A stretch of DNA of 63,924 nt, filler included, from Malassezia furfur (taxonomy: Eukaryota): NCBI GenBank assembly GCA_052055015.1. It is 4 parts of 4 records of this genome, joined end to end, with 100 filler letters (N's around TTAATTAATTAA, not from the genome) between each part and the next. Parts side by side here need not be neighbours in the genome. Positions count along the whole stretch, not along the records: positions 33,260 to 49,728 come from JBQJIT010000248.1; 3 more parts are not named here. One strand, given 5' to 3'. The notes beneath the pieces are model-generated. The model ran no database searches, was not told where the DNA came from, and worked only from the letters and a program-made list of their open reading frames with translations. Below, piece by piece: positions 16,544-49,828 of the stretch. Numbering within the stretch: position 1 is the stretch's first letter; every line of letters begins with the position of its first letter. The translations under genes and the position numbers were made by a program.

Positions 16544-16643
16544 NNNNNNNNNNNNNNNNNNNNNNNNNNNNNNNNNNNNNNNNNNNNTTAATTAATTAAN
16601 NNNNNNNNNNNNNNNNNNNNNNNNNNNNNNNNNNNNNNNNNNN
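16544..16643. other. Artificial contig spacer (N44-TTAATTAATTAA-N44)
   Basis: Six-frame stop linker flanked by Ns. Confidence 0.97.
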
Positions 16644-19278: not shown

Positions 19279-20210
19279 ATGCTCTCCATCGAGTCGCTGC
19301 TGGCACTCGGTGTCGGTGGGGATGCCGTCTCCATGCTGCCACCATGCGACACTCATATTCATGTTACCGACACCCTTGATGCATCTGGCGCCTTCGTCCT
19401 TCTACACTACGGGCTCGTCGCCCTGCACGCCAGTGCTCACAACGTGGTGTGGGTGAGCTGCCGCGCCGACGGTGTTGCACACTGGAACAGCGTTACGCGC
19501 AAGGCGGTACGTGTGCATGACTTACACAGGGAATGCCATTGACTCAATACCTGGCATCCGGTGAACTTCAAATGGTCGATGCCGAACAATACCTTGGCGC
19601 GGAAGAGCCTTTGTCTGCGCTTTTCGACGCCATTCATGGAGCTATACGCGTGGCACAGACCCCAAACAAGACAGAAGAACCCAATCCGCCTTATTTGGCG
19701 CGTACGCTGGTGATTGTGGATGATCTTTCAATCTTGCAATGGAACCTGCCAGGCTCCATGGAGTCAGTGCAGTCGGCCCTCACCCGTTTCCTTCTCTCCC
19801 TACGAGAGCTTTGCGTTCAACAACAGGCCGCCTTGCTGACACTGCAGCATGCAGACGCGTGTTCTGCGGTGAATGCTCAAGGTACACTTGACGAGGGTGA
19901 CGAACTCTTGTTCCGGTATATCCTTCGCACGGCCGACATCTGGATTGGCGTGAATGAGCTGCCCAGTGGTCGTGCAGCAGACTGCGATGGCGAGCTCACT
20001 GTGCACGGGCTTTCACGGTGTGCTGCAGCAGCAACAGCATGTGCACCAAAAACGGATGAAGATCTACCTTTACAAGCCTTTCGCCTAGACCAGCCTTCCG
20101 AGACGTGCCTTTTTCGTATCGTACCAGATGGGACGGGGCCGAAGAATGCCAACGGTGTACGGTCCTCCGTCAAAATATGGTCGCGAGGGAGCGGCCAAGG
20201 TCTAGCCTAA
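19279..20210 (+). CDS. ELP6: Elongator subunit Elp6-like RecA-fold protein; one 23-nt intron
   Basis: VTDTLDASGAFVLLHY, HWNSVTRKA|GMPL, LVIVDDLSILQW and ELPSGRAADCDGEL. Confidence 0.72.
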
Positions 20211-20219
20211 TCTCAACCA

Positions 20220-21016
20220 TTATATACGTTTCGCTACTTCAATTGCGCCTTTGCAGCCATAGGCCACGATCGCTGACAAAAGAGCATGGGCAGGGGCCTG
20301 CTGGGCATCATGCTCGACGGCTGTATCCAGGTGCTCCAATTCGTCGTCGCGGAATTCCACTAGGACCGAGCGAAGCAGTTCAAGCGACTCTTCCAGCTGC
20401 TGCACCTTCTCTCCGGTGAATTTTGTTCGGAGTTTGCTGCCAATCTCGTCCAAGTGTGCCAGTTGACTGGGTTAGGAATGGCAAAAACGTACTCATCATA
20501 GTGCTCGCCAATGACAGTCTCAACAGCCTCCGTGCAGGCCATGGCGCTCTTTTCGCCCATCATCGCAGTCGCACCGCCTAGAACCCTTCCTGCCAAAGCC
20601 CAAAGTGGAACCAATGCGGATGGACGGGTCTGGTATTCGTCCAGCATGGCACTTGTGGCCTTTAGATGTTTCCGTTCATTCTCCCACATTTCCTGTATAA
20701 GCACATGACGTACAACGATCAAGTTCTTCTCCTGGCGCTTTCCTTGGAAGCCGAAGACATCAGCCTGCGCCTCATAAATGGTGTTGGCAGCGATCTCACC
20801 CGAGTGGTCGACGCGAAGCATGGCTGCCACTTCACGCTGATCAGCTGTATCAAGCGAGGACAGGAACTGCGCTGTACGTCGAAACTGCTCTAAGCGACGC
20901 TCTGAAGGTTTTGTGTAGGCATCTGAAGCCAAATTCACCGTGTTGAAGCGCCGCACATGAACCTGCACGGACCTGAGCGCCTGTCGGCTCGACTGGTTCC
21001 ATCCCCGCATCCACAT
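20220..21016 (-). CDS. COQ7: 5-demethoxyubiquinone hydroxylase Coq7; introns 20693-20713 and a 26-nt intron near 20467-20492
   Basis: [33 protein letters not shown] and [13 protein letters not shown] di-iron motifs. Confidence 0.95.
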
Positions 21017-21128
21017 CGTCGCCCGAACCAAAATGGCCGCACCCTGACTAAACGTGACATGTGGATCTGCAGGTCTATCTTCTTGAAGCAACAATCTGGA
21101 GTAGCCGTCAGCTTATCAACTCGCACCC

Positions 21129-22793
21129 ATGTTGTTTGCAAAGTTGAGCCTGGCGGCTCTGGCTATGGCAACGGGCGCAGCGGCCAAAAATGGCTTTGTG
21201 TCTACCCCCACCGGTTTCACGACCAAGCAAGGCCATGCCAACACTACCGTTCGTTACAAGGAAGTCCCTACTGGTATCTGCGAGACCACTGAGGGTGTCA
21301 AGAGCTACTCGGGCTACGTCGACACGGCAGAGAACGAGCACATGTTCTTTTGGTTCTTCGAGGCACGTCATAATCCGGAAAAGGCACCGCTGACGGTGTG
21401 GTTCAACGGTGGCCCTGGCTCTTCCTCCATGATCGGTCTTTTCCAGGAGAACGGCCCGTGCCGCGTGAACCCGGATGGCAAGCTGCACAACAATAAACAT
21501 GCCTGGTCGGAGGTGTCCAATATGCTTTTTATTGACCAACCTGTTACCACCGGTCTCTCCTACTCAGTGGTGAGCCCTGTGGTGTACAACACGAATTCAG
21601 GATCGATTGTGCGGAAACTAGACTCGGACGAATGTCCTGACGATTTGGAGAAGCACGAGGCATGTGCAACCCTCTCGCTTCCCGATGAGACCGACGTGCC
21701 GTCGACTACGCGCGACACTCCTCCGGCTGTATGGAAACTTCTGCAAGGTTTCCTGGGTGCTTTCCCCGAATACAGCAACCGGTCGTTGCACCTAACCACC
21801 GAGTCGTACGGAGGTCACTACGCCCCTGCGTTTGGCACTTACATCTTGGAACAGAATGAGAACAAGCCAGATGATGCAGTGACGCTTAACCTCAAGTCTG
21901 TTCTGATTGGCAACGGTTGGTACGACCCAATGGTGCAGTACCAAGCCTACTACAACTTCACCGTGTCTCCTGGGAACACGTACGATCTTTCCCCTTTCAA
22001 CAAGAGCATCAGCGATGAGATGTACAATAATCTTTATGGCGAAGGCAAGTGCATTGACCAGCTGAAGGAGTGCTATTCGTCCAAGGCGAACAAAATCTGC
22101 CGCAAGGCCGACGCCTACTGTGCGGAGAACGTGGAATCAATTCTCGATATCTACGCAAACCGGGACGAATACGACATCCGCGAGCTTATGCCCGACCCCT
22201 TCCCTTACAGCAATTACGTGGACTATATGAACACCGAGGAGGTCCAATCGGCCATCGGTGCCTACCAGAACTACTCTGAAAGCTCAGTAATCGTCAGCAA
22301 AGCGTTTACTCGTACTGGTGATGACGGTCGCCGCGAGGGAGCCATCAAGAACCTCCGCTCGCTGTTGCAGCAAGGCATTACAGTCACCCTGCATGCGGGC
22401 GATGCAGACTACAACTGCAATTGGCTTGGCGGTGAAGTGATTGCCCACAAAGTGGGTGGGGACGATTTTACCAAGGCTGGCTATGTCGACCTACAGACCA
22501 CCGGCTCTCAAACTCCGGGTCAGGTGAAGCAGGCTGGCAACTTCAGCTTTGTGCGCATTTATTACAGCGGCCACGAGGTGCCCTTCTACCAACCGGTCGC
22601 TGCGCTCGAGATGTTCAACCGGACAATCCACGGAAAGGATGTGGCCACCGGCCTTCATTCACCTTCGGACACCTACAAGACCAAAGGCAGCGTAACGAGC
22701 ACTTTACGTCAAGGCAATGCGACGGTGCAATACGACGTCGTGTCGCCTAATGTCACATACAATCCGATTACGCACAAGCCCAACAATAGCTAA
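21129..22793 (+). CDS. Secreted serine carboxypeptidase (peptidase S10), intronless
   Basis: Signal peptide, WFNGGPGSSS, catalytic Ser in TESYGGHY, Asp in DYNCN and His in GHEVP. Confidence 0.92.
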   Translation: MLFAKLSLAALAMATGAAAKNGFVSTPTGFTTKQGHANTTVRYKEVPTGICETTEGVKSYSGYVDTAENEHMFFWFFEARHNPEKAPLTVWFNGGPGSSSMIGLFQENGPCRVNPDGKLHNNKHAWSEVSNMLFIDQPVTTGLSYSVVSPVVYNTNSGSIVRKLDSDECPDDLEKHEACATLSLPDETDVPSTTRDTPPAVWKLLQGFLGAFPEYSNRSLHLTTESYGGHYAPAFGTYILEQNENKPDDAVTLNLKSVLIGNGWYDPMVQYQAYYNFTVSPGNTYDLSPFNKSISDEMYNNLYGEGKCIDQLKECYSSKANKICRKADAYCAENVESILDIYANRDEYDIRELMPDPFPYSNYVDYMNTEEVQSAIGAYQNYSESSVIVSKAFTRTGDDGRREGAIKNLRSLLQQGITVTLHAGDADYNCNWLGGEVIAHKVGGDDFTKAGYVDLQTTGSQTPGQVKQAGNFSFVRIYYSGHEVPFYQPVAALEMFNRTIHGKDVATGLHSPSDTYKTKGSVTSTLRQGNATVQYDVVSPNVTYNPITHKPNNS

Positions 22794-23073
22794 AATAATC
22801 CCGTGTTCAATAGCATGTCTTGGTTATATCTATTTATCAAGCGTAAAAAAACATGCTTTGACCCAGAAACCTAAGCCTAGGTTCCGGAAAGGGTTGCGAT
22901 AATATGATGACAGAGATAGGTGAGGAAGACGGTTCATCACGGAGATTATTGTACACTTGGGAGGTCAATATCCCTCCCCAGCGCACATCATACTCCGACT
23001 CGATACATTTCAGTAGAAAAAAAAAACCGTAGAAAACACAAGTGTCACAAGCGATGCACAAAAGAACCTTGGA

Positions 23074-24051
23074 TTACTCGGCAGTTTCTTTAGCAATCAA
23101 TTTGTCGATGCTGGGCAGCTGCAGCTGGGAGGACTTGGGCTCGTCATCCGTTAGGATAGGGGGCAGTATGGTTGAGCCTGCCGCTGCGCCTTGTTCCTTC
23201 GACAATGGTTGCCCAGCCGGTGTATATGCATCCGCAAGGGTCGGAGGCGAATGCCTTTGGACGCTGTGAGTGAGGGTATCAGGGCCAGCAGTAGGCTGGT
23301 GGGGGTCGTAACTCGAAGGTCGGCGCAGTAAGGAAGGGGTGCGCCGTTCTGAATTGATTGGCCGTGCATGCCAATTGTTCATCCAAGGATCCACGGGTGG
23401 TCCCAGTGGCGGTTTTCGCACATTAAATGCAGTGGATATGGGCGTTGTGGCAGGTTCGCGGGCGTTTGCCATGTTAGGGTCAGTTGCCGTGTGTACGGGG
23501 GGCGAACGCCGGGGCGGGGCCATTTTGGGAGGAGCATTCGGCCCATCTACCAGTCTTTCTGGCGTTATATTGGGAGGGTACATGGGGACCACCAGCGGGT
23601 GAGAGGACATGGGTACGCCACTGGTCTTTTTCCGTTGCTTCTGACGCTTGTTTTGAAAGAAGACTTGGACCTTGCGTGGGGACAAGCCGAGCTTTGCAGC
23701 GACTGCCTCTCGGACCTGGGTGGATGGAAAGCACGTCTGTTGCAAGAGCTCATGCAAAACACGGCTCTGTTCCGGCGTTAAAAGCGTCCGCGCACGTTTG
23801 GAGCCGTTGGTACCACGGCCTCCCTGGGTCTGCGAACGAGACCCCTTGGCGGCGCCGCCACTTGGTACCTTCCCCAAGTCACGATCGACCTTTTCCGCAT
23901 CGGCTAGGCTGGCCTCGGACGTTTCCGATGTACTCGACACATCCGATTCGCTTCGTTTATAAGCCGGGAGCCGAGGTGGATTTCCATCCTCCTCGTGCGC
24001 AGGCGGTTTTGACCCATCATTCCCTTGCGGAGAATGTGAGTAGCCTAGCAT
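23074..24051 (-). CDS. Homeodomain transcription factor (start uncertain)
   Basis: Homeodomain KRARTLLTPEQSRVLHELLQQTCFPSTQVREAVAAKLGLSPRKVQVFFQNKRQKQRK. Confidence 0.82.
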   Translation of the reverse strand: MLGYSHSPQGNDGSKPPAHEEDGNPPRLPAYKRSESDVSSTSETSEASLADAEKVDRDLGKVPSGGAAKGSRSQTQGGRGTNGSKRARTLLTPEQSRVLHELLQQTCFPSTQVREAVAAKLGLSPRKVQVFFQNKRQKQRKKTSGVPMSSHPLVVPMYPPNITPERLVDGPNAPPKMAPPRRSPPVHTATDPNMANAREPATTPISTAFNVRKPPLGPPVDPWMNNWHARPINSERRTPSLLRRPSSYDPHQPTAGPDTLTHSVQRHSPPTLADAYTPAGQPLSKEQGAAAGSTILPPILTDDEPKSSQLQLPSIDKLIAKETAE

Positions 24052-24593
24052 TCCTTGGCGGTACGGGCGTAGGGGCGTCAAATGAATAGGATCGACCCGT
24101 ACGCCACACAATGAAGGAGAACAGAACAATACCGTGCACAAACACGCGATGACAATTTTATACTACATGCGGATATTAGATTTCTTGGTATGCATTGCAT
24201 TGAGTGCCGCAGTCTATTTCGTGAAAAATTGAACGGCTGGCCGCACCCTTGTTGCCTTGTGAATGACGCAACATCCGACCAGTCAAACAGCCAGATTCGG
24301 GCGCTGCCGAGGTTGGAGCCTTTAATTATCCCTTGCAAACTCCGTCTGGACCAAACACCTCGTGCATGATTGGGCCGGCGAGTTTTATGAATAGCACTCA
24401 CCGCCACTTTTTTTCACGGATTTAATTTCCTATACGCTAATTCCTCCGCGGACGTTTGCCCCGACCCAGATTAACCCAGCCGGACTTAATTCCGAGCGGG
24501 TTCGGCGGCGTACGAATTTATCGATCGGTCAATCCATTTGTCCCCGGACGCGAACGAGGCACTGTTCAGGCACCACCCGTTTCGTTGGGGATA

Positions 24594-25520
24594 ATGCGAC
24601 GAGGGTCTGGCATTGCTGCGTTGGACCGGCGAAATCAATCCCGCGAGCAATATATCTCTTTGTCCCATGAGCTGAACGAATCCAAAGTAGATGAGCTGAG
24701 GGGCCAAATTGACGCATTCCGGCGACAATTGCGCACATTCGCCGTGGCTCACAAAAAGGACCTCCGTCAGGATCCACAACTTCGCCATGCGTTCCAGCAG
24801 ATGTGTACCAGTATGTGGGTCGACCCTCTAGCGGGACGCCCCGCGACGTCAGCGGCAGGTACGCGACTTGGAAAAGTGGGTGAGCTGTGGAACGAGCTGC
24901 TTGGCTTTAGCGATTGGCAGCACGAGCTCGGCGTCCAGGTCGTAGATGTCTGTGTGAGCACGCGCAAGAGGAACGGTGGTGTTATTTCAATGCAAGACCT
25001 CATCGGAGGAATTACCAAGCTCCGACGATCTTCGTTTGGACCGACGCACACTGAGGAAGAGGAGCAGATCGACGCGCACATTACCGAGGAGGACGTCAAG
25101 CGCAGTATCGACGCCCTGAAACCACTAGGGTGTGGTTATGAAGTGTTCTCCCTTCATGGCAAAACCATGGTACGCACTGTACCCATGGAGCTGAATGCGG
25201 ATGCGCTGTCCATTCTCCAACACCTCACGTCAGGCACGTCCCGAAAAGATACCCAGGGTGTTCCATTTGTAACACCGGATGATGCAAACAATCCGATGAT
25301 GCCCACATTACGTGGCTGGTCTACTCTACGTGCACAACATGTGTTGGACAGTATGGTCATGAGCGATGGGACAATGTGGGTAGATGTGGTCCCCCATGAT
25401 CTATTACCGGTTCCCGAGTCCCAGAGGCAGCATTACTATTCGCCTGCACTGGTTGACAGTGCAGTGACACACCCGACGGTTGCATCTGCGTCCAAATCAA
25501 TGGCCACGCTGCAGGTATAA
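24594..25520 (+). CDS. SNF8: ESCRT-II subunit Snf8/Vps22
   Basis: MRRGSGIAAL start, FAVAHKKDLRQDPQLRHAFQQMC, VDPLA, ELGVQVVDVCVSTRKRNGG and RTVPMELN. Confidence 0.9.
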   Translation: MRRGSGIAALDRRNQSREQYISLSHELNESKVDELRGQIDAFRRQLRTFAVAHKKDLRQDPQLRHAFQQMCTSMWVDPLAGRPATSAAGTRLGKVGELWNELLGFSDWQHELGVQVVDVCVSTRKRNGGVISMQDLIGGITKLRRSSFGPTHTEEEEQIDAHITEEDVKRSIDALKPLGCGYEVFSLHGKTMVRTVPMELNADALSILQHLTSGTSRKDTQGVPFVTPDDANNPMMPTLRGWSTLRAQHVLDSMVMSDGTMWVDVVPHDLLPVPESQRQHYYSPALVDSAVTHPTVASASKSMATLQV

Positions 25521-25781
25521 CGAAGACTGTACAGTACCCCGCGCAGGTGGTGGAACCCCGCGTTGCGCGAGCAGGTCATTTAGATCGCGCAGGGCCCAGG
25601 AGTTATTTTCCCACGTGGAGACGACGCGTCATCGTCGCTGATAGGCTGTTTTCGTTATCTTAGTCAAAGCGATTATGCTTGTCTATGCACAGAGGCGTGA
25701 CTGGAATACGTAGGCATCGCGTTGCACCCGAGGGGTCTTCTTTCCGCCACGCGCAAAACTGGTTCTTCCTTCAGTACAACG

Positions 25782-26825
25782 ATGGCACCTCCAGGACAGT
25801 CAGGATTTTCGTGGTCCAACATTGCAGTTGGCGCTGCCATGAACATGTTCGAAGTGACCACCCTCGGTCAGCCGTTTGAGGTGGTCAAGACGCAGATGGC
25901 GTCGAACCGTAGCCAGAGCATGGCCCAGGCACTCCGCACGGTGTGGAGCCGTGGCGGCGTGTTTGGCTTTTACCAAGGCCTGATCCCATGGGTATGTGCG
26001 CTCACAGGGTGTTGAGATCTGACGGTGTGCAGGCATGGATCGAGGCATCGACCAAGGGTGCCGTGCTCCTGTTCACCTCGAGCGAGGTGAACAAGGTGGC
26101 CAAGACCTTTGGCTTCGGCCCTGGTGCGTCGGGCCTGGCTGGTGGCATGATCGGCGGTGTCGTGCAGGCATACGCGACGATGGGCTTCTGTACATGTATG
26201 AAAACGGCCGAGATTACCCGTGTTAAGCAAATGCAGGCTGGCGTGAAGCCGCCGTCGACCTGGGCCGTTTTTGCCGACATCTTCCGCCGCGAGGGTATTC
26301 GTGGTATTAACAAGGGTGTGAACGCTGTCGCGATCCGGCAGTGCACCAACTGGGGTAGCCGGTATGTTGCAAGGCTTGGTGCAACTGAGTACTAACTGAT
26401 AGCATGGGCTTTGCACGCCTCGCCGAGGCGCCCGTCCGCACGTTCGCGGGCAAGACGGAGAAGGACAAGCTGTCTCCGCTCGAGCGTATCTTCTGCTCTT
26501 CGATCGGTGGTGCGCTTGCGACATGGAACCAGCCGATCGAGGTGATCCGTGTCGAGGTACGTCGATCGCGAAAGCTGACCTCAGATGCAATCGCTGTCGA
26601 AGTCGGCCTCGGAGCACCACAAGTCGAAGCCAACGATCATGAGCACGGCTGCCTATATCTACAAGGAAAATGGCATCAAGGGCCTGTATCGTGGTGTGAG
26701 CCCTCGCATTCTGCTGGGCATCTGGCAGACGGTACGTGGGAGGGGCGCACAGCCGTAACTAACCGCAGGTTTGCATGGTTTCGTTCGCCGACACGGTGCG
26801 CGATTGGATCGGCACGAGCCAGTAG
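25782..26825 (+). CDS. YHM2: Mitochondrial citrate/oxoglutarate carrier Yhm2; four introns (41, 41, 28, 37 nt)
   Basis: [57 protein letters not shown] and [14 protein letters not shown]. Confidence 0.93.
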
Positions 26826-33159: not shown

Positions 33160-33259
33160 NNNNNNNNNNNNNNNNNNNNNNNNNNNNNNNNNNNNNNNNN
33201 NNNTTAATTAATTAANNNNNNNNNNNNNNNNNNNNNNNNNNNNNNNNNNNNNNNNNNNN
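33160..33259. other. Artificial contig spacer
   Basis: N44-TTAATTAATTAA-N44. Confidence 0.97.
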
Positions 33260-40417: not shown

Positions 40418-43033
40418 TCATGGCTTGGCGTCGGCGCGATCGCGGACTTGCGCGAGCAGCGACGAAGCGATACGTCCTTTGATTTCCGACTCGACCGCCT
40501 CGGCGTTCCCCTCGGCGTCCTTGCCCTCGCCGCTGACCTGCTCCGCGAGCTCCAGCTTGCGGTCCGCGAGCGCGAGGATGTCCTCGTCGATCGTGCCCCG
40601 GCTGATCAGCTTGACGACCGTCACCGGCTTCGTCTGCCCGATGCGGTAGCACCGGTCGGTCGCCTGCTTGTCGTTCTGCGGGTTAAAGTCCTGGTCGAAC
40701 AGCACGACCCAGTTCGCCGCCACGAGGTTGATCCCGAGGCCGCCCGCGCGCGTCGACAGGAGGAAGACGGGGATCGACGTGTCGTTCGTGAAGCGGTCGA
40801 CAATGTGCTGCCGGTCGCCGACGTTCGTCTGGCCGGTGAACCCGACGTAGGGCACGCCGAGGTGCTCCAGACACACACATAGGATGTCGAGCATCGACGT
40901 AAACTGGCTGAACACGAGGATGCGGTCGCCGTTCGCGCGCGCCTCGTCGATGACGCGCTTCAGCGCCTGCACCTTGCCCGAGTTCATCCACTCCTCGGGC
41001 GGCAGCACGTGCTTCTGTGTGGCCTTCCACGAGCGCGCGAGCAGCGACAGCTCCGCGTCGGTGTTGATCGCAAAGTCCTCCTTGAGGTGCGTCAGGTTCT
41101 CCTCGGCATGCTCCGGCTCGCGCATATAGTCGCGCGCGAGCGCCGCGATGCGCTTCTCGGTGTAGAGCCGGCGGAAGAGCAGGGGGTGGTTCGCCGCCTT
41201 GCGCAGGTCCATCAGCACGTTGCTCGTGTCGCGTGCCGACGCCTTCTTGGCGCCCTTCGCCGGCGCGTCGTCCGCCTCGGCGAGCGCCGACTTGGTGCGC
41301 TGCAGCGCGTCCTGGTACAGCGCGCGCTGTGCGTCGGTCAGCTCGCAGTACTCGACGCGCTCCGTCTTCTTCGTGAGGCCGAGGAGCACCTTGTCCTTGC
41401 GCCGGCGCAGCACAAACGGCCGCATCATGCGCTTGGCGCGCATCACGCGCTGCTGCGACAGCGGCGACGTGCCGGCGCCGGGCTTCGCCTTGAAGATGGC
41501 CGCGAGCGCGTCCTCTGCGGAGACAAAGTACTCGGGCAGGATGAAGCTCAGCAGCGAGATGAGCTCCTGCAGGTTGTTCTGCAGCGGCGTGCCGGTGAGC
41601 AGCAGGCGCCAGCGCGCGGCGATCTTCATGAGCTTCTCGTACTTCTGCGAGCGGCGGTTCTTGAGCATGTGCCCCTCGTCGTACACACACACGTCGAAGC
41701 CGCACTTGCGCAGGAACTTGTGGTCGTCGCCGGCGGTCGCCATGTCGTACGTGGTGAGCATCACGTCGTAGTCGCTGCGCTCGCGCAGGTCCATGCGCAG
41801 CTCGCGGCGCTCCGCCTGCGAGCCGTAGTACACCTCGACGCGCAGCGCCGGGCAGAAGTGCTGCAGCTCGCGCGACCAGTTCTCCAGCACGGATGAGGGC
41901 ACAATGATCAGGTGCGGCCCGCGGCGGGGGCCCTGCTGCTTGAGGTGCGCGAGGAAGGCAATCACCTGCGCCGTCTTCCCGAGGCCCATCTCGTCCGCCA
42001 GGATGCACGAGATCTGCTTCCGGTACAGCAGGTGCAGCCAGCTCACGCCGAGCAGCTGGTAGTCCTTGAGCGTGATGCCCTCGGCGAGGTTCGAGGGCTG
42101 CTCGTGCAGGTAGTATTCGTCGTCCACCGCCCCGTCGCGCTTCACCTCGGACAGGTTCACGGCGCCGAGCGAGTCCTCGCCGGCGTCCGCGGTCGTCTGC
42201 CAGCTGCGCATCGCCGCGTCGAGCTCGGCACCGACCGCCTCGCACTTGGCCAGCACGTCGTCGACCTCCATGTAGCCGGCCATCAGCTCGACGCAGTTCG
42301 CAAACAGCCGCGGCGACACGCCCTTCGCCGACTTGTCGCCCAGCCGCTCGTACACGTCGTCCACCGACGCAAACGGACGCAGCGACAGGATCGTGCGCGC
42401 CTGCTCCGGCGTGCAGTTGATGCTATCCACCATGCTGTTCGCGTCGCACTTGTTGAACCAGCCGAGCGCGAGCGTCTGCTCGTACTGCTGCCGCGCATCC
42501 ATGTCGACCGCTGCCTCGTCGTCCGACGAGTCGCCGTCAAACTCGACCGACGCATCGCTGTCCGAGTCGTCCATCACGCGCGACTTGCGCTTCGCGGGGC
42601 GCTTCGGCGGGGGCCGCGCCGCGGGCGCGGGCGCGGGCGCATGCACAGGCGCGGGCGGAGGCGCCGGGGTTGGCGCAGGCACAGGCGCGGGCGGCGGCGC
42701 AACCGTCTTGGGCCGCAGCTTCTCGATCGCGACGCCCAGGTCGTAGTTGGAGGCGCGCAGCACCTCGACACACTGCTCCACGGAGTAGCTCGAAAACAGA
42801 CGCGCAAGACGCGTCGCCTTGATCTGCACGATGCTGTCCGACGGCGTGTAGCTGGACGGGCGCGCGGGCGGCGCGTCGGAGCCCGGCGCGCGGTACTGGT
42901 ATGCCTCGAGGCTGCGTCGGAACATATCGTCGTCCGTGCGTGTCTTCTTGTTCGCGGGCGCGTCGGACGGCGCCGCGCGCGTCGGGCTGGAGTCGGGCGC
43001 CAGCACCACCGGGTCGTGCGCCGATCCACTCAT
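40418..43033 (-). CDS. FUN30: SNF2-family chromatin remodeller Fun30/SMARCAD1
   Basis: CUE-like N-terminus, ILADEMGLGKT, DEGHMLKN, TGTPLQNN, LRKAANHPLLFR and DFNPQND. Confidence 0.9.
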   Translation of the reverse strand: MSGSAHDPVVLAPDSSPTRAAPSDAPANKKTRTDDDMFRRSLEAYQYRAPGSDAPPARPSSYTPSDSIVQIKATRLARLFSSYSVEQCVEVLRASNYDLGVAIEKLRPKTVAPPPAPVPAPTPAPPPAPVHAPAPAPAARPPPKRPAKRKSRVMDDSDSDASVEFDGDSSDDEAAVDMDARQQYEQTLALGWFNKCDANSMVDSINCTPEQARTILSLRPFASVDDVYERLGDKSAKGVSPRLFANCVELMAGYMEVDDVLAKCEAVGAELDAAMRSWQTTADAGEDSLGAVNLSEVKRDGAVDDEYYLHEQPSNLAEGITLKDYQLLGVSWLHLLYRKQISCILADEMGLGKTAQVIAFLAHLKQQGPRRGPHLIIVPSSVLENWSRELQHFCPALRVEVYYGSQAERRELRMDLRERSDYDVMLTTYDMATAGDDHKFLRKCGFDVCVYDEGHMLKNRRSQKYEKLMKIAARWRLLLTGTPLQNNLQELISLLSFILPEYFVSAEDALAAIFKAKPGAGTSPLSQQRVMRAKRMMRPFVLRRRKDKVLLGLTKKTERVEYCELTDAQRALYQDALQRTKSALAEADDAPAKGAKKASARDTSNVLMDLRKAANHPLLFRRLYTEKRIAALARDYMREPEHAEENLTHLKEDFAINTDAELSLLARSWKATQKHVLPPEEWMNSGKVQALKRVIDEARANGDRILVFSQFTSMLDILCVCLEHLGVPYVGFTGQTNVGDRQHIVDRFTNDTSIPVFLLSTRAGGLGINLVAANWVVLFDQDFNPQNDKQATDRCYRIGQTKPVTVVKLISRGTIDEDILALADRKLELAEQVSGEGKDAEGNAEAVESEIKGRIASSLLAQVRDRADAKP

Positions 43034-43124
43034 CCGAACACAGAGAAGGTTAAAAACCACGGACGCGCGACGCGTCGACTTAATTCCCCGCGCACGCGCG
43101 CTCGGCCGGTAGGTCCTATGAACG

Positions 43125-44485
43125 CTACTCCTCCTCCTCCTCCTCGTCGCTGTCCTGCTGCTCGATGAACTTGACGAGCGGCTCGGCGAGCTTGACAAAG
43201 TGCTGCTTGCCCTGCGGCTTCGCACCCTTCTGTGCCCAGTAGATGATCGCACCGTCCGACAGGACATCCTTGTTGTATAGGATCTTGAGCAGCGTCGGGA
43301 ACGACTTGAAGACACGCGTATCCGTGTAGCAGTGCAGCTGGATCGCATTGATCAGCGCGATCTGCGCGCGCGCCGTCGACGCGAACGGCTCCAGCACACC
43401 CGCGAGGCGCTCGACCTCGCGCGGGACAATCATCTCGAGCTGGTCCTGCTTCGTCTCGGCGTCGATGCCGCGCATCATCCCCTCGAAGACGACCACGACA
43501 AACTCTTCCGGCGAGGCGCCGAGCTTCTTTTGGCGCTCCTGGAGCATCTCGAGGATCTCCTGCGGGGAGACATCCTCCTTCTCGACGAGCTCGGCGAGCG
43601 TCGCCGCGGTCTGCTCGCGCAGCTCCTTGGTCTGCCGGCGCGCATAGTACTCGGCGACCTGCGGCAGGTTCACTTCGGGCGAGCGGAAGTACTGCGAGAT
43701 GACGTCCGGCTGCGCGCGCTTCGTCTGGGGGAAGAAGAGTAGCCAGTCGCGGATGCCGCCCTTGCGCAGCGTCGATGCAAGGTGCTCCATACTCTGGTCC
43801 TGCAGGTAGGTGCGGAAGACGATGGTGATAAAGTGCAGCGCCAAGTCGTCCTTGGTGAGGTGGTCCTTTTGCAGCGGCGACAGAATGCTCGCATTCGTCA
43901 GCCCCATCTGAATCGAGAGCGCACACGCAACCGCCAGCTTGTTCACCTGCACGGGGTCGTAGCGGTTGATGTACTGCAGAATGCCCTTCATCGAGGTCTC
44001 TTCGAGCGGCTTTTGGAGGAACTTGTAGCGGCGGATCATCTTTTCGATCACCTCGACATACGGGCGCACGTCCTCGATCTTGTCGCTCTTTGCCGCAAAG
44101 ATCGAAAAGGCGCTCATCGGCGCGCCATCGTCGACGTAGGAGCCGCCCGGCGCCAGCAGACCTCCGACGATCAGAATCTCAAAGAGCTGGTCGGTGTACT
44201 TGCGGTAGTCGAGCTGCGTGAGTACGCACACGTACCGTGTTGCCTGCCTTGTCGAGGCTGCTCAGGTAACCATCCCAGTCGCCCGGCTGGATGGTCTCAA
44301 AGTACTTGTACAGCGAGTTGCGGAAGACTTCTGGCTCAAACTTGGCCTGGGACTTGACAGCGCCCTTCCTCTGCTTGATCCTGGCGTAAGTGGCCCACGT
44401 ACCTCGATCCCGTAAGAGTCGGCTTGTTGTTTCCCGTCGGAGCAGTTGGACTGGGTCAGCCACACACGTACGGCGTAGAGGTCAT
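43125..44485 (-). CDS. BZW: eIF5-mimic protein (BZW/5MP, W2 domain); introns of 21, 22 and 22 nt
   Basis: Spliced N-terminus MTSTPPTAPTGNNKPTLTGSRIKQRKG, LDYRKYTDQLFEILIVGGLLAPGG and a W2 C-terminus with acidic tail. Confidence 0.88.
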
Positions 44486-44551
44486 AAAAAGAGGTGCAGT
44501 CGGCGCCACGGACCAGAACGAGCGCCCGCACCGCCAGGGCGCGGCGGAGAG

Positions 44552-44561
44552 GTCACGTGAC
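44552..44561. promoter_or_regulatory. GTCACGTGAC extended E-box in the BZW/ArfGAP bidirectional promoter
   Basis: Perfect 10-bp palindrome between divergent ATGs (44485 and 44578). Confidence 0.62.
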
Positions 44562-44577
44562 ACACTCACACCAACAC

Positions 44578-45555
44578 ATGTCGTACGCCGCGCGCAAGCC
44601 CCAGTCGCGCGCCGAGGCCGAGGCGAACGCCCGCACCCTGCGGAGCCTCGTAAAGCTCCCAGACAACAAGGTGTGCGCAGACTGCAAGCGGAACGACACG
44701 CGCTGGGCTTCGTGGAACATCGGGTGCTTCCTCTGCATCCGGTGCTCCGGCGTCCACCGCAGCATGGGCACCCACATCAGCCGCGTCAAGTCCATCGACC
44801 TCGACATGTGGACCACCGAGCAGATGGAGTCCGTGCAGCGCTGGGGGAACCGCCGCGTGAACCTCTACTGGGAGGCCAACCTCAAGCCGGGCCACATTCC
44901 GCCGGACCACAAAATCGAAAGCTTCATTCGGAGCAAGTACGAAAGCCGCCGCTGGGCCATGCCTGGACCGCCGCCTACGGATCCGTCGGTCCTTGACGGC
45001 GCGACGCCCGCACCCGCCGCCGCACCAGCTGCTGCACCAGCTGCTGCGCCGACGACGGCACCCGCCGCTGCTCTTCCCAAGACGCAGCGGACGCCGGCCG
45101 CGTCCAGCGCGTTGCTCGACTTTTTGTCGGACGAGCCAGCGCCTGCACCTGCCACGACACCGGCGCCAGTCGCTGCGAAGCCCGCAGCGACCGCAGCGGC
45201 CGCCTCGGCACCGGCGCCGACCGCTCCCAAGGCACGCGGCGGCGGCCTCTTTGATCTCGACTGGGACGAGAATCCCGTGCAGGCGGCGCCTTCTGCGCCT
45301 GCCAAGACTGGCAAGGGCAAGGAGGACATCCTGAGTCTCTTCTCGGCACCACCGCCCATGCGGCAATCGGACTCGCTCTTTGCGACCCCGGCGGCGCCCA
45401 CTGCCGACCTTCGGGCCAGCACGGCCGCTGCGCCGCGCACGGGCGGCACGGATATCTTTAACACGCAGGACATATGGGGTACGCCTGCGTCTGCGGACCC
45501 TCCGAAACCCAGTGCGAATGACGCCTTCGCGGATATCTGGGGCGAGTTCAAGTAG
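44578..45555 (+). CDS. ArfGAP (Age2/SMAP-like)
   Basis: CADCKRNDTRWASWNIGCFLCIRCSGVHRSMGTHISRVKS zinc finger and FIRSKYE. Confidence 0.9.
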   Translation: MSYAARKPQSRAEAEANARTLRSLVKLPDNKVCADCKRNDTRWASWNIGCFLCIRCSGVHRSMGTHISRVKSIDLDMWTTEQMESVQRWGNRRVNLYWEANLKPGHIPPDHKIESFIRSKYESRRWAMPGPPPTDPSVLDGATPAPAAAPAAAPAAAPTTAPAAALPKTQRTPAASSALLDFLSDEPAPAPATTPAPVAAKPAATAAAASAPAPTAPKARGGGLFDLDWDENPVQAAPSAPAKTGKGKEDILSLFSAPPPMRQSDSLFATPAAPTADLRASTAAAPRTGGTDIFNTQDIWGTPASADPPKPSANDAFADIWGEFK

Positions 45556-45669
45556 AGCGTCGATACCCTAGAGACCCACTCCGTAGCTCCGCCCGTATAT
45601 GCTGACTCAATCCTCGTTAAGAGATCCCTGCCCGATTTCGACTCTGCCTCTCAGGCAAATCCCGACTAA

Positions 45670-46120
45670 GACATAATAAAAATATTCTTATACAATGCAT
45701 ATATCGTTTTAAAAATTGCTAAACGCATATATATAAATTTAGTAGAAAAAAGAAATAAGTTTTACAGATAAAATTACTAGAACAAAAAATAAAAATAAAA
45801 TATTATGTACAGATAATCAAATAGTTACTATATCTTTTTAAAAAATTATAGTGAAGCTATAATATTATAGAATGAGTACCAAATATTTATATTATATTAT
45901 ATACTAATATTTTATAATATGTTAGTTTTCACAAATGTTATCAGTATTATAATGATTCAAACGTTTTTTTGGTATTAGATTATAATTTTGAATGTATACA
46001 GATTTATTATACGTATAAACTAAATTACATTCTGTAAAATATGGTGATTTCCATTATTTTATATTGGTCTTGATACAAATCATTTTCAATTTGATTTGAT
46101 ATATTTAAAGTTGAATTTCT
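45670..46120. other. AT-rich non-coding island, candidate centromere core
   Basis: Hand count gives 50 G+C in 45721-46020 (~17%) against visibly ~65-70% GC flanks. It is intergenic with no credible ORF. Confidence 0.65.
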
Positions 46121-46180
46121 TGCTTTCTGGAATCCGACTTGGACCGACGCGGGGTCTGTGTGTCCCTGCATCTCGCTCCC

Positions 46181-47724
46181 ATGGTGGAGGGCGGCGTGGA
46201 GATGAGCTCGGGCCCCAAGCCCGGCCACCTGCCTTGCCGGGTGAGTGACTTGACCTACCTGTACTGCTGGGTATGCTCTGAGGAAGAGGTGCGGTCGCCT
46301 GGCGGTACTCCTGTGAACCGGAGTAGCTCGAATGCCGCGTCGACGTCACGGTTTGTGCATCCGTGCAAGTGTTCGCTCGTGGCGCATGAAAAGGTACGTG
46401 GGGCAGGTGGGGTCCCCCCGCTAACTGCCAGTGTCTCTTGTCGTGGATCCGGCAATGTCGGCAGGACAAACCCGACACGGTGGTGTCGTGCCCGCAGTGC
46501 AAGACGCCGTACCAACTGGAGCAGCCGCGGTCGGTGCTGCTCCTGGTGCTGGAGCGGTGCAACAGGGCGATCCGGTCGCTGGTGCCCATGGGTGCGTCGC
46601 TGATTGCGGCCGGGGGTGTGTGGGTTGCGGCGACCGCGTACGGGTGTTTGGCGATCCGGCTGTTCCTGGGCCGGCATGCGGCGCGGCGCGCCCTGTCCGG
46701 GCGGTGGCCGTGGCACTACTGGATCGACATCCCCCTGATCCCCTTTATGCTGGTCGCGAGCCGGCTGCCGATCCTCGCCAACTTTTCGACGTGGCTTCCG
46801 ACGCTGGTTGCGCTGCCGATTGGGTCGGCGCCCGTGGCGCACCGGCGCGTGCTGCACATGTACCGGTACACGTCGCAGGCGGTGCTGCCGCGGACGTATC
46901 CCCCCAGCCCCGTGATGACGACGCTGCTGCTCCCGTGGTTGCGCGTGCTGTACCTCACGGTGAAGCGGCAGGTGTACCGCCGTGTGCTGGCGCGCCCCCG
47001 TGGAGCGCGTGGGGCGCGGCGCGGCGCGGCGGGCACGGTGCGTGGCGCGGACGGCGGGCGTGCGGGCGCGGCGACGCGCATGGTGCTGGTGGGCGACGAC
47101 GCGGCGGGTGCGCAGCTGCTGGATGCGGACGAGCCGGTCGAGGATACCTACGAGACGCTGGACGACGGGACGCTGGCCCCCCACGGCGCGTGGCCGGCGG
47201 AGCAGGGTGTGCCGCTGGACGAGCTCGAGTTCCAGGTGCTGGAGGACGACGCGATGCCGCCGGCGATCTTTGTGAGTTTCTACAGCGTGTCGAAGCTGCT
47301 GGTGCAGTCGCTTGCGTTCCCGTTCGTGGCGAGCTGGATGGGCGGGCTGCTGGGCGTGATGGCGCGCACGAGTGCGGTGCTGCGGCGTGTGCTGGGGATG
47401 GCGCCCGGCGCGGCGGCGGGCGACGTGGGCCGCACGCGGTGGATCGATGTGCTGTGGCTGCACCCGACGGGCGCGGAGGCGGACGTGCCCGTGCTGGCGG
47501 ACGGCGTGGGCCCCGTGTGGCTGGACGACGTGGGCGCCGTGTACGACGACCTGGACCCCGTGTGGTGGCGCAACGCGGTGGGCGGTGCGCTGTACCTTGT
47601 GCTGAAGGACGCGGGGGTGCTGCTGTACCGCTACCTGCGGCAGGAGCAGCGGCGGCGGCAGCGGCTGCGGGACCTGCCGTTCAGCGAGGGCGTCGCGCGC
47701 GAGCTGCTGGCGTCGCACCCGTAG
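46181..47724 (+). CDS. RING-CH (MARCH-type) membrane E3 ubiquitin ligase; intron 46394-46431
   Basis: CWVC...HPCKCSLVAHEK|CLLSWI...CPQCKTPY, several transmembrane segments and WRNAVGGALYLVLKD (MARCH5-like). Confidence 0.82.
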
Positions 47725-47974
47725 GCGTGCAGTTGATCTCGATTCGTACGGCTATGCATGGCGAGTTTGCTATAGCTAGGGGGCGTTGCGCGCGAGCTGC
47801 TGGCGTCGCATCCGTAGGCGTGCAGGGAGATGTTGGTTCGTACGGCTATGCCATGGCGAGTTTGCTATAGCTAGGGGCGTGGCGCGCGAGCTGCTGGCGT
47901 CGCACCCATCGTAGTGCAGTTGATCTCGATTCGTTACGGCTATGCCATGGCGAGTTTGCTATAGCTGGGGGGCG
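47688..47974. repeat. Three diverged ~94-bp tandem copies of the MARCH/NEO1 3'-end junction
   Basis: Unit GGGCGT.GCGCGCGAGCTGCTGGCGTCGCA...CGGCTATGC(C)ATGGCGAGTTTGCTATAGCT(A)GG starts at 47688, 47781 and 47875. Confidence 0.93.
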
Positions 47975-49728
47975 CAACGCGCGCATGCACGGCCTTGATG
48001 ACATACAGCGGGAAGCTGCTGACGAGCACGATGATGAGCGTCTTCCACCAGAAGCTGTACGTCAGCACAAAGTCGAGGTCGAAGTACTCCGGGAGGAGCA
48101 CCATGCTGAAGCAGTACAGGAGGAGCGTCGCGATCTCGGAGAGCACCATGTACGCGTGCCACGTGGTGATTTCGAGCGCGACCATGATGAGCTCGTTGAG
48201 GACGAGCGCGGTGAAGGAGATGCCGACAATGTTCAGGAACTCGTTCTCGAACAGGAGGAGGCTGGCGATCATGATCGCCCCTCCTTGGTACACGCTGATC
48301 AGGAGCCAGATGGTGAACGTCTTGCCGCTCAGGCTGCGCCCCTTGGTGAGGTCGCGGTACAGCTCGGGGTACAGCAGCGCGAGGTCTTCGCTCACGTCGC
48401 GGTCGAGCACGAGGGAGAAGACGGGCGCCATCGTGTAGACGGTGGCGTAGCCGACCATGAGCCAGCCCTGGTAGAGCGCGATCGGCGCAAAGTAGAAGAT
48501 CGACGAGAACACCGCCTGGATGATGGAGATGATCAGCCCGCGGTGGATGACGAACTGCGCGAGCTTGGCGCTGCGCTGGTACGAGTTGCGCCCGTGCCAC
48601 AGGAGGAGCTTGCTGAGGTAGCTGAAGCGCTCCACCGAGAAGTCGGCGGCGAGCGACGCCTGGCGCCCCTCCTTGCCGACGATGCCGATGCCAATGTTCG
48701 CCGCCTGGATCATCGACACGTCGTTGCCGCCGTCGCCGATGCAGCACACCTGCTTGCGCGTGTGCGCACGGATGAGGCGCGTGATGTCCGCCTTCTGCGT
48801 CGGCGAGCAGCGGCACGCGACGACGACCGGGAGCTGCGTCGCGAGCTCGATGAACTCGGTGGCAAAGTACGTGCACAGAAACTGCAGCGACGCGCCGTCC
48901 ACGACGAGGCACGCGTCCGGCTTCGCCTGGAGGAGCACGAGCGTGTCACGTGCCTCGGCGCGCGACGCGAGGTTCGCCACCGCGTGGATGTACTGGTTGC
49001 GCGCGACGAGCTTGGTCGAGATGGCGATGCACGTCGCGGTCTCGATCTTGTCGCCCGTGAGCATCCAGATCTTGATGTTGGCGTTGCGCAGGAGCTCGAT
49101 GGTGGTCTTGACGCCCTCCTGCAGCTTGTCCTCGACGCCCGTCAGGCCGAGCAGCTCCATGTTCTGCTCGAGGTGCTGCGCGACGACCGCGGCCATCGCC
49201 GCGTCGCGCCCCTCGACGCGCACGCGCGCCGCGGCGTACGCGCGCTCGAACAGGCGCCAGCTCTCCTTGCTGAGGCGCAGGCGCGCGACGACGAGCGTGC
49301 GCAGTCCCTCGCGCGCCATGTTGCCGCACTCCTCGTCGAGCCAGTCGTTGTGCGTGACGATGCGGCTCATCACGACGTCCGCGCCCTTCAGGTAGAAGCT
49401 GATCTCGCCCGTGCGCCGGTCGCGCACGACGATGCCCATGCGCTTGCGCTCCGACGTGAACGGGAACAGCTCGAGGATGTCGAACCACAGCGCGCCGCCG
49501 CCCGGCGTGCGCAGCTCGAGCGCGTGCTGGTCGCGCGCGACGAGCGCCACGCCGAGCTGCTCCGTGTACCGCACGAGCGCCACCTCGTCCGGGCTGCTCG
49601 CCTGGTACGTCACGCCGCCGTCCTCGTCGACGATCGGCGTCACGTTGTGGCACACCGCGAGCGCGAGCACCGCGTCGCTCACGCGCGCGCCCAGGTCGCG
49701 CCAGCGCGCGCGCGGCTTCGGCGCCGCG
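47940..49728 (-). CDS. NEO1: P4-ATPase phospholipid flippase Neo1 (C-terminal half; 5' part beyond contig)
   Basis: [58 protein letters not shown] and PPSYSKL. Confidence 0.93.
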
Positions 49729-49828
49729 NNNNNNNNNNNNNNNNNNNNNNNNNNNNNNNNNNNNNNNNNNNNTTAATTAATTAANNNNNNNNNNNNNNNN
49801 NNNNNNNNNNNNNNNNNNNNNNNNNNNN
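49729..49828. other. Artificial contig spacer
   Basis: N44-TTAATTAATTAA-N44. Confidence 0.97.

Follow-up and report, generated by a model that had tools for sequence, protein, structure and literature searches.

The 63,924-nucleotide stretch of Malassezia furfur DNA analysed here, referred to as the window, contains a short island that is far poorer in GC than the sequence around it. The original prediction was that this island is a short centromere core. The question is whether it is indeed a centromere, or whether its composition has a different origin.

Composition count places the island at 45670-46120, with a length of 451 bp and 17.7% GC. This agrees with the predicted size of about 450 bp and GC content of about 17%. 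When GC was calculated in sliding frames of 450 bp over the 64-kb window, the lowest frame was found to start at 45672, with 17.6% GC. Outside the island the frames have a mean of 63.3% and a standard deviation of 5.8%, and their minimum is 43.1% at 22654. The island is the GC minimum of the window by 25 percentage points, and it is the sole trough in 64 kb. The surroundings had been described as 65-70% GC. That value was too high, as the window overall has 63.0% GC.

Both borders of the island are abrupt, as predicted. In 20-bp bins, GC drops from 55% to 35% and then 20% at 45640-45680 on the left, and climbs from 15% to 45% and then 70% at 46100-46140 on the right. Each transition is completed within about 20-40 bp. 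Runs of A or T that are 5-7 nt long are common inside the island. Its left half contains 112 A and 75 T and its right half 77 A and 107 T, in line with the A-rich left and T-rich right halves originally noted.

The remainder of the window is not uniform in composition. A broad region of lower GC is located at 20000-26000, with 46-59% in 400-bp bins compared to 60-75% elsewhere. It contains the 450-bp frame at 22654 mentioned above, which ranks second-lowest in the window, and has no sharp trough. Runs of N are found at 16544-16643, 33160-33259 and 49729-49828, as three pairs of 44-base runs with 12 bases between the members of each pair. We read them as masked stretches.

Genes around the island

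ORFs and Pfam domains were used to assign the neighbouring genes. The features in the vicinity of the island are:

40418..43348, minus strand: SNF2-family helicase (FUN30-like); PF00176 E 2e-71, PF00271 E 6e-23
43125..44117, minus strand: 5MP/BZW-type protein (HEAT_5MP1_2 and W2 domains), main ORF; PF25504 E 8e-51, PF02020 E 1e-18
44578..45555, plus strand: ArfGAP, 325 aa, left pericentric gene, 3' end towards the core; PF01412 E 2e-40
45670..46120, no strand: AT-rich centromere core (almost certainly the MfCEN7 core), non-coding; composition, match to Table 2 of PMC7025860
46181..47724, plus strand: probable RING-CH (MARCH-like) membrane protein, right pericentric gene, 5' end towards the core; ORFs, exon translations
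47940..49439, minus strand: P4-type phospholipid flippase (NEO1-like), C-terminal part; PF16212 E 1e-44

These assignments reproduce the predicted gene order of FUN30, BZW, ArfGAP, island, MARCH and NEO1. The true start of the FUN30-like helicase is probably located downstream of the first ATG of its ORF. The P4-ATPase gene is the second gene to the right of the core. It runs on past the N stretch at 49729, and is interrupted by it.

The island was claimed to lie between an ArfGAP gene and a MARCH ligase gene. The ArfGAP assignment is firm. The MARCH label of the right neighbour is plausible but weakly supported by its sequence. Exon 1 alone matches RINGv with an E value of 0.036 and 14.7 bits, under the Pfam cut-off of 21.6 bits. 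In the two-exon model that we favour from the sequence, exons at 46181-46393 and 46432-47724 would be separated by a 38-bp intron at 46394-46431 (gtacgt...ctaac...cag). The RINGv match is below the threshold because this putative intron splits the domain, and a C4HC3 RING-CH pattern is readable across both exons.

The MARCH-like gene runs into a tandem repeat. It occupies 47688-47971 and consists of 3.0 copies of a 94-bp unit, with 87% matches. The repeat starts about 37 nt before the MARCH-like coding sequence ends, and every copy repeats the final codons and the stop. On its other side, the array reaches the convergent P4-ATPase gene at its 3' end.

Correspondence with MfCEN7

Centromeres have been mapped in Malassezia, including M. 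furfur strain CBS14141 (Sankaranarayanan et al. 2020, eLife 9:e53944, PMC7025860). In that study, the centromere of chromosome 7, MfCEN7, was probed with MF7 primers for chromatin immunoprecipitation followed by quantitative PCR (ChIP-qPCR). We compared the MF7 primers listed in its Supplementary file 1 with the window sequence by eye; no alignment program was used. All ten primers are identical to the window (189 nt, 0 mismatches), and each occurs only once. They form five convergent pairs in the order L2-L1-core-R1-R2, arranged symmetrically around the island:

44030..44178, no strand: L2 primer pair (MF7 LF2/LR2), to the left of the core, with 1566 bp between its centre and the core border; primer match
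44917..45084, no strand: L1 amplicon (MF7 LF1/LR1), located in the ArfGAP gene, with 670 bp between its centre and the core border; primer match
45851..45963, no strand: core amplicon, MF7 F1/R1, 113 bp, 18.6% GC, inside the island; primer match
46710..46872, no strand: R1 amplicon (MF7 RF1/RR1), located in the MARCH-like gene, with 671 bp between its centre and the core border; primer match
47623..47749, no strand: R2 primer pair (MF7 RF2/RR2), to the right of the core, with 1566 bp between its centre and the core border; primer match

The positions of L1 and R1 agree with the distance of about 750 bp from the core that is stated for them in PMC7025860. Table 2 of the same paper gives MfCEN7 of CBS14141 as 445 bp with 20.9% GC, in a genome of 64.9% GC. 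These values differ somewhat from the 451 bp and 17.7% of the island. A 446-bp frame at 45710-46155, shifted by 40 bp relative to the island, has exactly 20.9% GC. The difference is therefore a matter of border placement.

The source data of PMC7025860 contain nine measurements per site for 3xFLAG-tagged CENP-A. At the core amplicon, 1.82% of input was recovered, compared to 0.052% at the control locus, a 35-fold enrichment. Recovery was 0.196% of input at L1 (3.7-fold over control) and 0.222% at R1 (4.2-fold); in the files examined, L2 and R2 are without values. From these data we calculated that the core signal is 8-9-fold above those of the flank amplicons. This corresponds to the published description, in which the replacement of histone H3 by CENP-A is strongest on the AT-rich intergenic core of ~0.45 kb, and CENP-A drops about 9-fold within 0.7 kb on both sides, into the ArfGAP and MARCH-like genes (PMC7025860). 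The ChIP experiment proposed as a check of the original prediction is thus available in published form, and its outcome is positive. The centromere reading is supported because the primers fall on and around the island and the CENP-A-enriched amplicon lies within it, and the prediction of a short Malassezia centromere core was correct.

We conclude that the island is almost certainly the AT-rich core of MfCEN7, a short regional centromere on chromosome 7 of M. furfur, in CBS14141 or a near-identical strain. The strain part of this assignment is suggested by the 189 nt of primer sequence alone.

The island also resembles Malassezia centromeres as a class. These have been defined as a 3-5 kb kinetochore-bound region, whose AT-rich intergenic core is shorter than 1 kb and coincides with the GC minimum of the chromosome (PMC7025860). 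Within the scope of the 64-kb window, the island is such an intergenic AT-rich core and coincides with the GC minimum. The original prediction expected about one trough per chromosome, and the literature provides the answer. A single discrete low-GC region per Malassezia chromosome has been reported, coinciding with validated centromeres (Coelho et al. 2023, PMC10410736). In M. furfur, one trough is present on each of the seven chromosomes, and CENP-A is enriched at all seven (PMC7025860).

An alternative is that the island is only a spacer with a terminator and a promoter between two tandem genes, unusually rich in AT but playing no part in a centromere. In favour of this, the island separates two plus-strand genes, the ArfGAP gene by its 3' end and the MARCH-like gene by its 5' end, and short A/T runs are common in it. 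However, no further intergenic region in 64 kb is below 43% GC, and the reading is contradicted by the published 35-fold CENP-A enrichment on an amplicon within the island. We consider it very improbable.

The abrupt borders and the extreme contrast in composition could also indicate that the island stems from a contaminant or from mitochondrial DNA (as a NUMT), or that it marks an assembly join. Searches of the sequence argue against this. The longest stop-free stretch in the island is 43 aa. A search of 44000-48000 against Rfam at E<=1 gave zero matches, rRNA included, and a tRNA search of the whole window found none. Published data point in the same direction. The core primers amplified from both input and ChIP DNA of M. 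furfur, the published assembly consists of seven PacBio contigs that each run from telomere to telomere, its eighth scaffold being the separate mitochondrial genome, and a comparable trough is present on all seven chromosomes (PMC7025860). The probability of a foreign or artefactual origin is negligible.

With the island taken as the MfCEN7 core, a model of the kinetochore can be outlined by analogy with M. sympodialis, in which Mtw1 ChIP-seq defined a kinetochore domain of 3-5 kb (PMC7025860). The kinetochore would assemble on a small number of CENP-A nucleosomes, with the core at their centre. At a basal level it may spread across both flanking genes, the ArfGAP and the MARCH-like gene, which are probably transcribed. 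The domain at this locus would then span a few kb and include both genes. We infer this extent because the M. furfur evidence comes from ChIP-qPCR rather than ChIP-seq, with a single 113-bp amplicon in the core and two amplicons in the flanks.

The locus, composition, CENP-A occupancy and evolutionary context of MfCEN7 are already known from a publication of 2020, and were taken up again in 2023. Since CENP-A ChIP on MfCEN7 has been published, the decisive test is done and the locus is not new. It serves as a clean positive control, in which composition and gene context were enough for a validated centromere to be recognised. The locus itself offers very little new biology, and the switch in strand skew described below is the only lead that it leaves.

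Sequence features and strand skew of the core

Malassezia centromere cores lack transposons, long direct or inverted repeats and genes. The same was found for the island, where repeats are restricted to short low-complexity ones of 29 nt or less. Folding of the core as single-stranded DNA is no stronger than that of shuffled sequences (z -0.38), and 37 of 100 shuffles fold equally well or better. A cruciform or hairpin reading therefore gains no support at this locus.

The heptamer TACAGAT was originally singled out as a recurrent element. Its three sites, at 45763, 45808 and 45997, are present, as is the minus-strand variant TTACAGAA at 46030-46037, and TACAGAT is absent from the rest of the window on both strands. 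Its recurrence is only weakly beyond chance. Any 7-mer with at least two G/C bases reached three or more copies in 31 of 2000 shuffles, and any 7-mer whatever did so in 1999 of 2000. Because of this weak recurrence, and because the motif was picked post hoc, we set TACAGAT aside as a specific element and do not count it as a feature.

A different sequence element has been described for these centromeres. In M. sympodialis, a 12-bp AT-rich motif is matched 7-13 times per 500 bp, and the motif is enriched at every predicted M. furfur centromere (PMC7025860). The authors of that study left undecided, for want of plasmid tools, whether the centromeres are specified by sequence, through AT-richness and the 12-bp motif, or epigenetically.

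The switch from A-rich to T-rich sequence in the middle of the core is beyond chance, being reached by none of 2000 dinucleotide-preserving shuffles. The cumulative A-T curve peaks at 45883, which marks the switch point. The flanks also change in skew, from C>G on the left to G>C on the right. In a scan of the window at a scale of +-2 kb, the island centre (45895; 43670-48120) ranks first of 2397 positions for the jump in GC skew, and likewise for the jump in TA skew.

These skews could indicate that the core is a centromere and also a fixed, efficiently firing replication origin, as in Candida albicans, with the skew switches as the mutational footprint of the exchange between leading and lagging strands. 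Candida centromeres have a GC/AT skew switch of this polarity, GC skew from negative to positive and AT skew from positive to negative, which was ascribed to a constitutive origin (Koren et al. 2010, PLoS Genet 6:e1001068, PMC2924309). The non-coding switch in the core and the first rank of the island centre are in favour of this reading. Additional support is provided by four-fold degenerate sites, at which GC skew on the plus strand is below zero in each of the three left genes (-0.15, -0.05 and -0.03) and above zero in each of the three right segments (+0.38, +0.54 and +0.10).

Several observations weaken it. The evidence comes from a single locus, and positions in the scan are not independent, as 64 kb hold about 16-32 independent frames of 2-4 kb. 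At +-3 kb, the TA-skew jump at the island centre ranks just 173 of 2317. The magnitude of the skews comes almost wholly from the MARCH-like gene, whose four-fold sites have a GC skew of +0.54 and a TA skew of +0.88, and it may reflect the codon usage of that gene. Skews on the left side are near zero, and the four-fold-site TA skew there (+0.09, -0.09 and +0.13) gives no clean change of sign. In addition, the A-rich half of the core faces the 3' end of the ArfGAP gene and the T-rich half faces the next promoter, and the composition of poly(A) signals and promoters could mimic the switch. On balance, we regard an origin at this core as possible but unlikely.

The MARCH-like gene is itself unusual in composition. 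Its exon at 46432-47724 has an extreme third-position strand bias, with G favoured over C, and T over A at the few positions that have A or T, compared to its neighbours, including the ArfGAP gene on the same strand. Such codon usage is unusual for a gene in basal CENP-A chromatin.

The switch at one locus is a lead, not a finding. The word 'skew' has no occurrences in the main texts of PMC7025860 and PMC10410736. The general proposition, that the centromere cores of Malassezia double as fixed replication origins and that skew switches are the footprint of their long-term firing, is doubtful at present. If true, an origin at the core would connect the inheritance, the AT-richness and the reported fragility of Malassezia centromeres. 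If the switch proved general in Malassezia, it would point to origins coupled to centromeres in a basidiomycete whose centromeres are very short, and would be relevant to the breakage of these centromeres in karyotype evolution.

Comparison with other loci and known centromeres

Relatives of the locus were sought in metagenomes with the ArfGAP protein, which identified 35 fungal loci. GC profiles were calculated for 22 of them; the other 13 were omitted by hand, mostly as short (2.8 kb or less). A comparable trough was found in none of the 22 profiled loci, and the lowest 300-bp GC among them was 33%, in locus L026. Translations of five other flanking ORFs were compared with all 35 loci by tblastn, and the single find was a FUN30-like gene, also in L026. 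No orthologous centromere was found among the 35 loci.

L026 (5847-10451 of a 225-kb contig with 49% GC) has a partly similar gene arrangement. Its FUN30-like gene is 66% identical and is located beside the ArfGAP gene in divergent orientation. There is no BZW gene between the two, and no MARCH-like or P4-ATPase gene downstream. The local GC minimum of 33% is in the shared promoter region of the FUN30-like and ArfGAP genes, not downstream of ArfGAP.

Among known centromeres, the closest counterpart of the island is MfCEN7 of CBS14141 (eLife 9:e53944, Table 2 and Figure 4B,C), which is the same locus, as judged by the 10/10 primers and the lengths of 445 and 451 bp, in a genome of about 64% GC. 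Nothing substantive differs between them; the borders are off by a few tens of bp, and the strain match extends over the 189 nt of primers. Other Malassezia centromeres, including M. sympodialis CEN1-8 and those of M. globosa and M. slooffiae, likewise have an AT-rich intergenic core of <1 kb at the GC minimum. They are also free of repeats and transposons, with ordinary genes on the flanks (PMC7025860). Table 3 of that paper lists MsyCEN4, MgCEN4, MslCEN4, MjCEN2, MvCEN1 and MreCEN1 as the orthologues of MfCEN7, with synteny given as 'partial'.

The centromeres of C. albicans and C. dubliniensis are of the same small regional, CENP-A-defined type. They also have a local drop in GC, and a switch of GC/AT skew with the polarity seen here. 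However, their cores measure 3-5 kb and are not extremely AT-rich, and the skew evidence in Malassezia comes from one locus and largely from one gene (PMC2924309 for Candida).

Unlike at the point centromeres of Saccharomyces cerevisiae, conserved flanking protein-binding boxes are not seen at MfCEN7. The S. cerevisiae point centromeres (CDEI-CDEII-CDEIII) resemble it in having a very AT-rich element of sub-nucleosomal to few-nucleosome size. Malassezia centromeres, in contrast, are classed as short regional centromeres, with kinetochore domains of 3-5 kb (PMC7025860).
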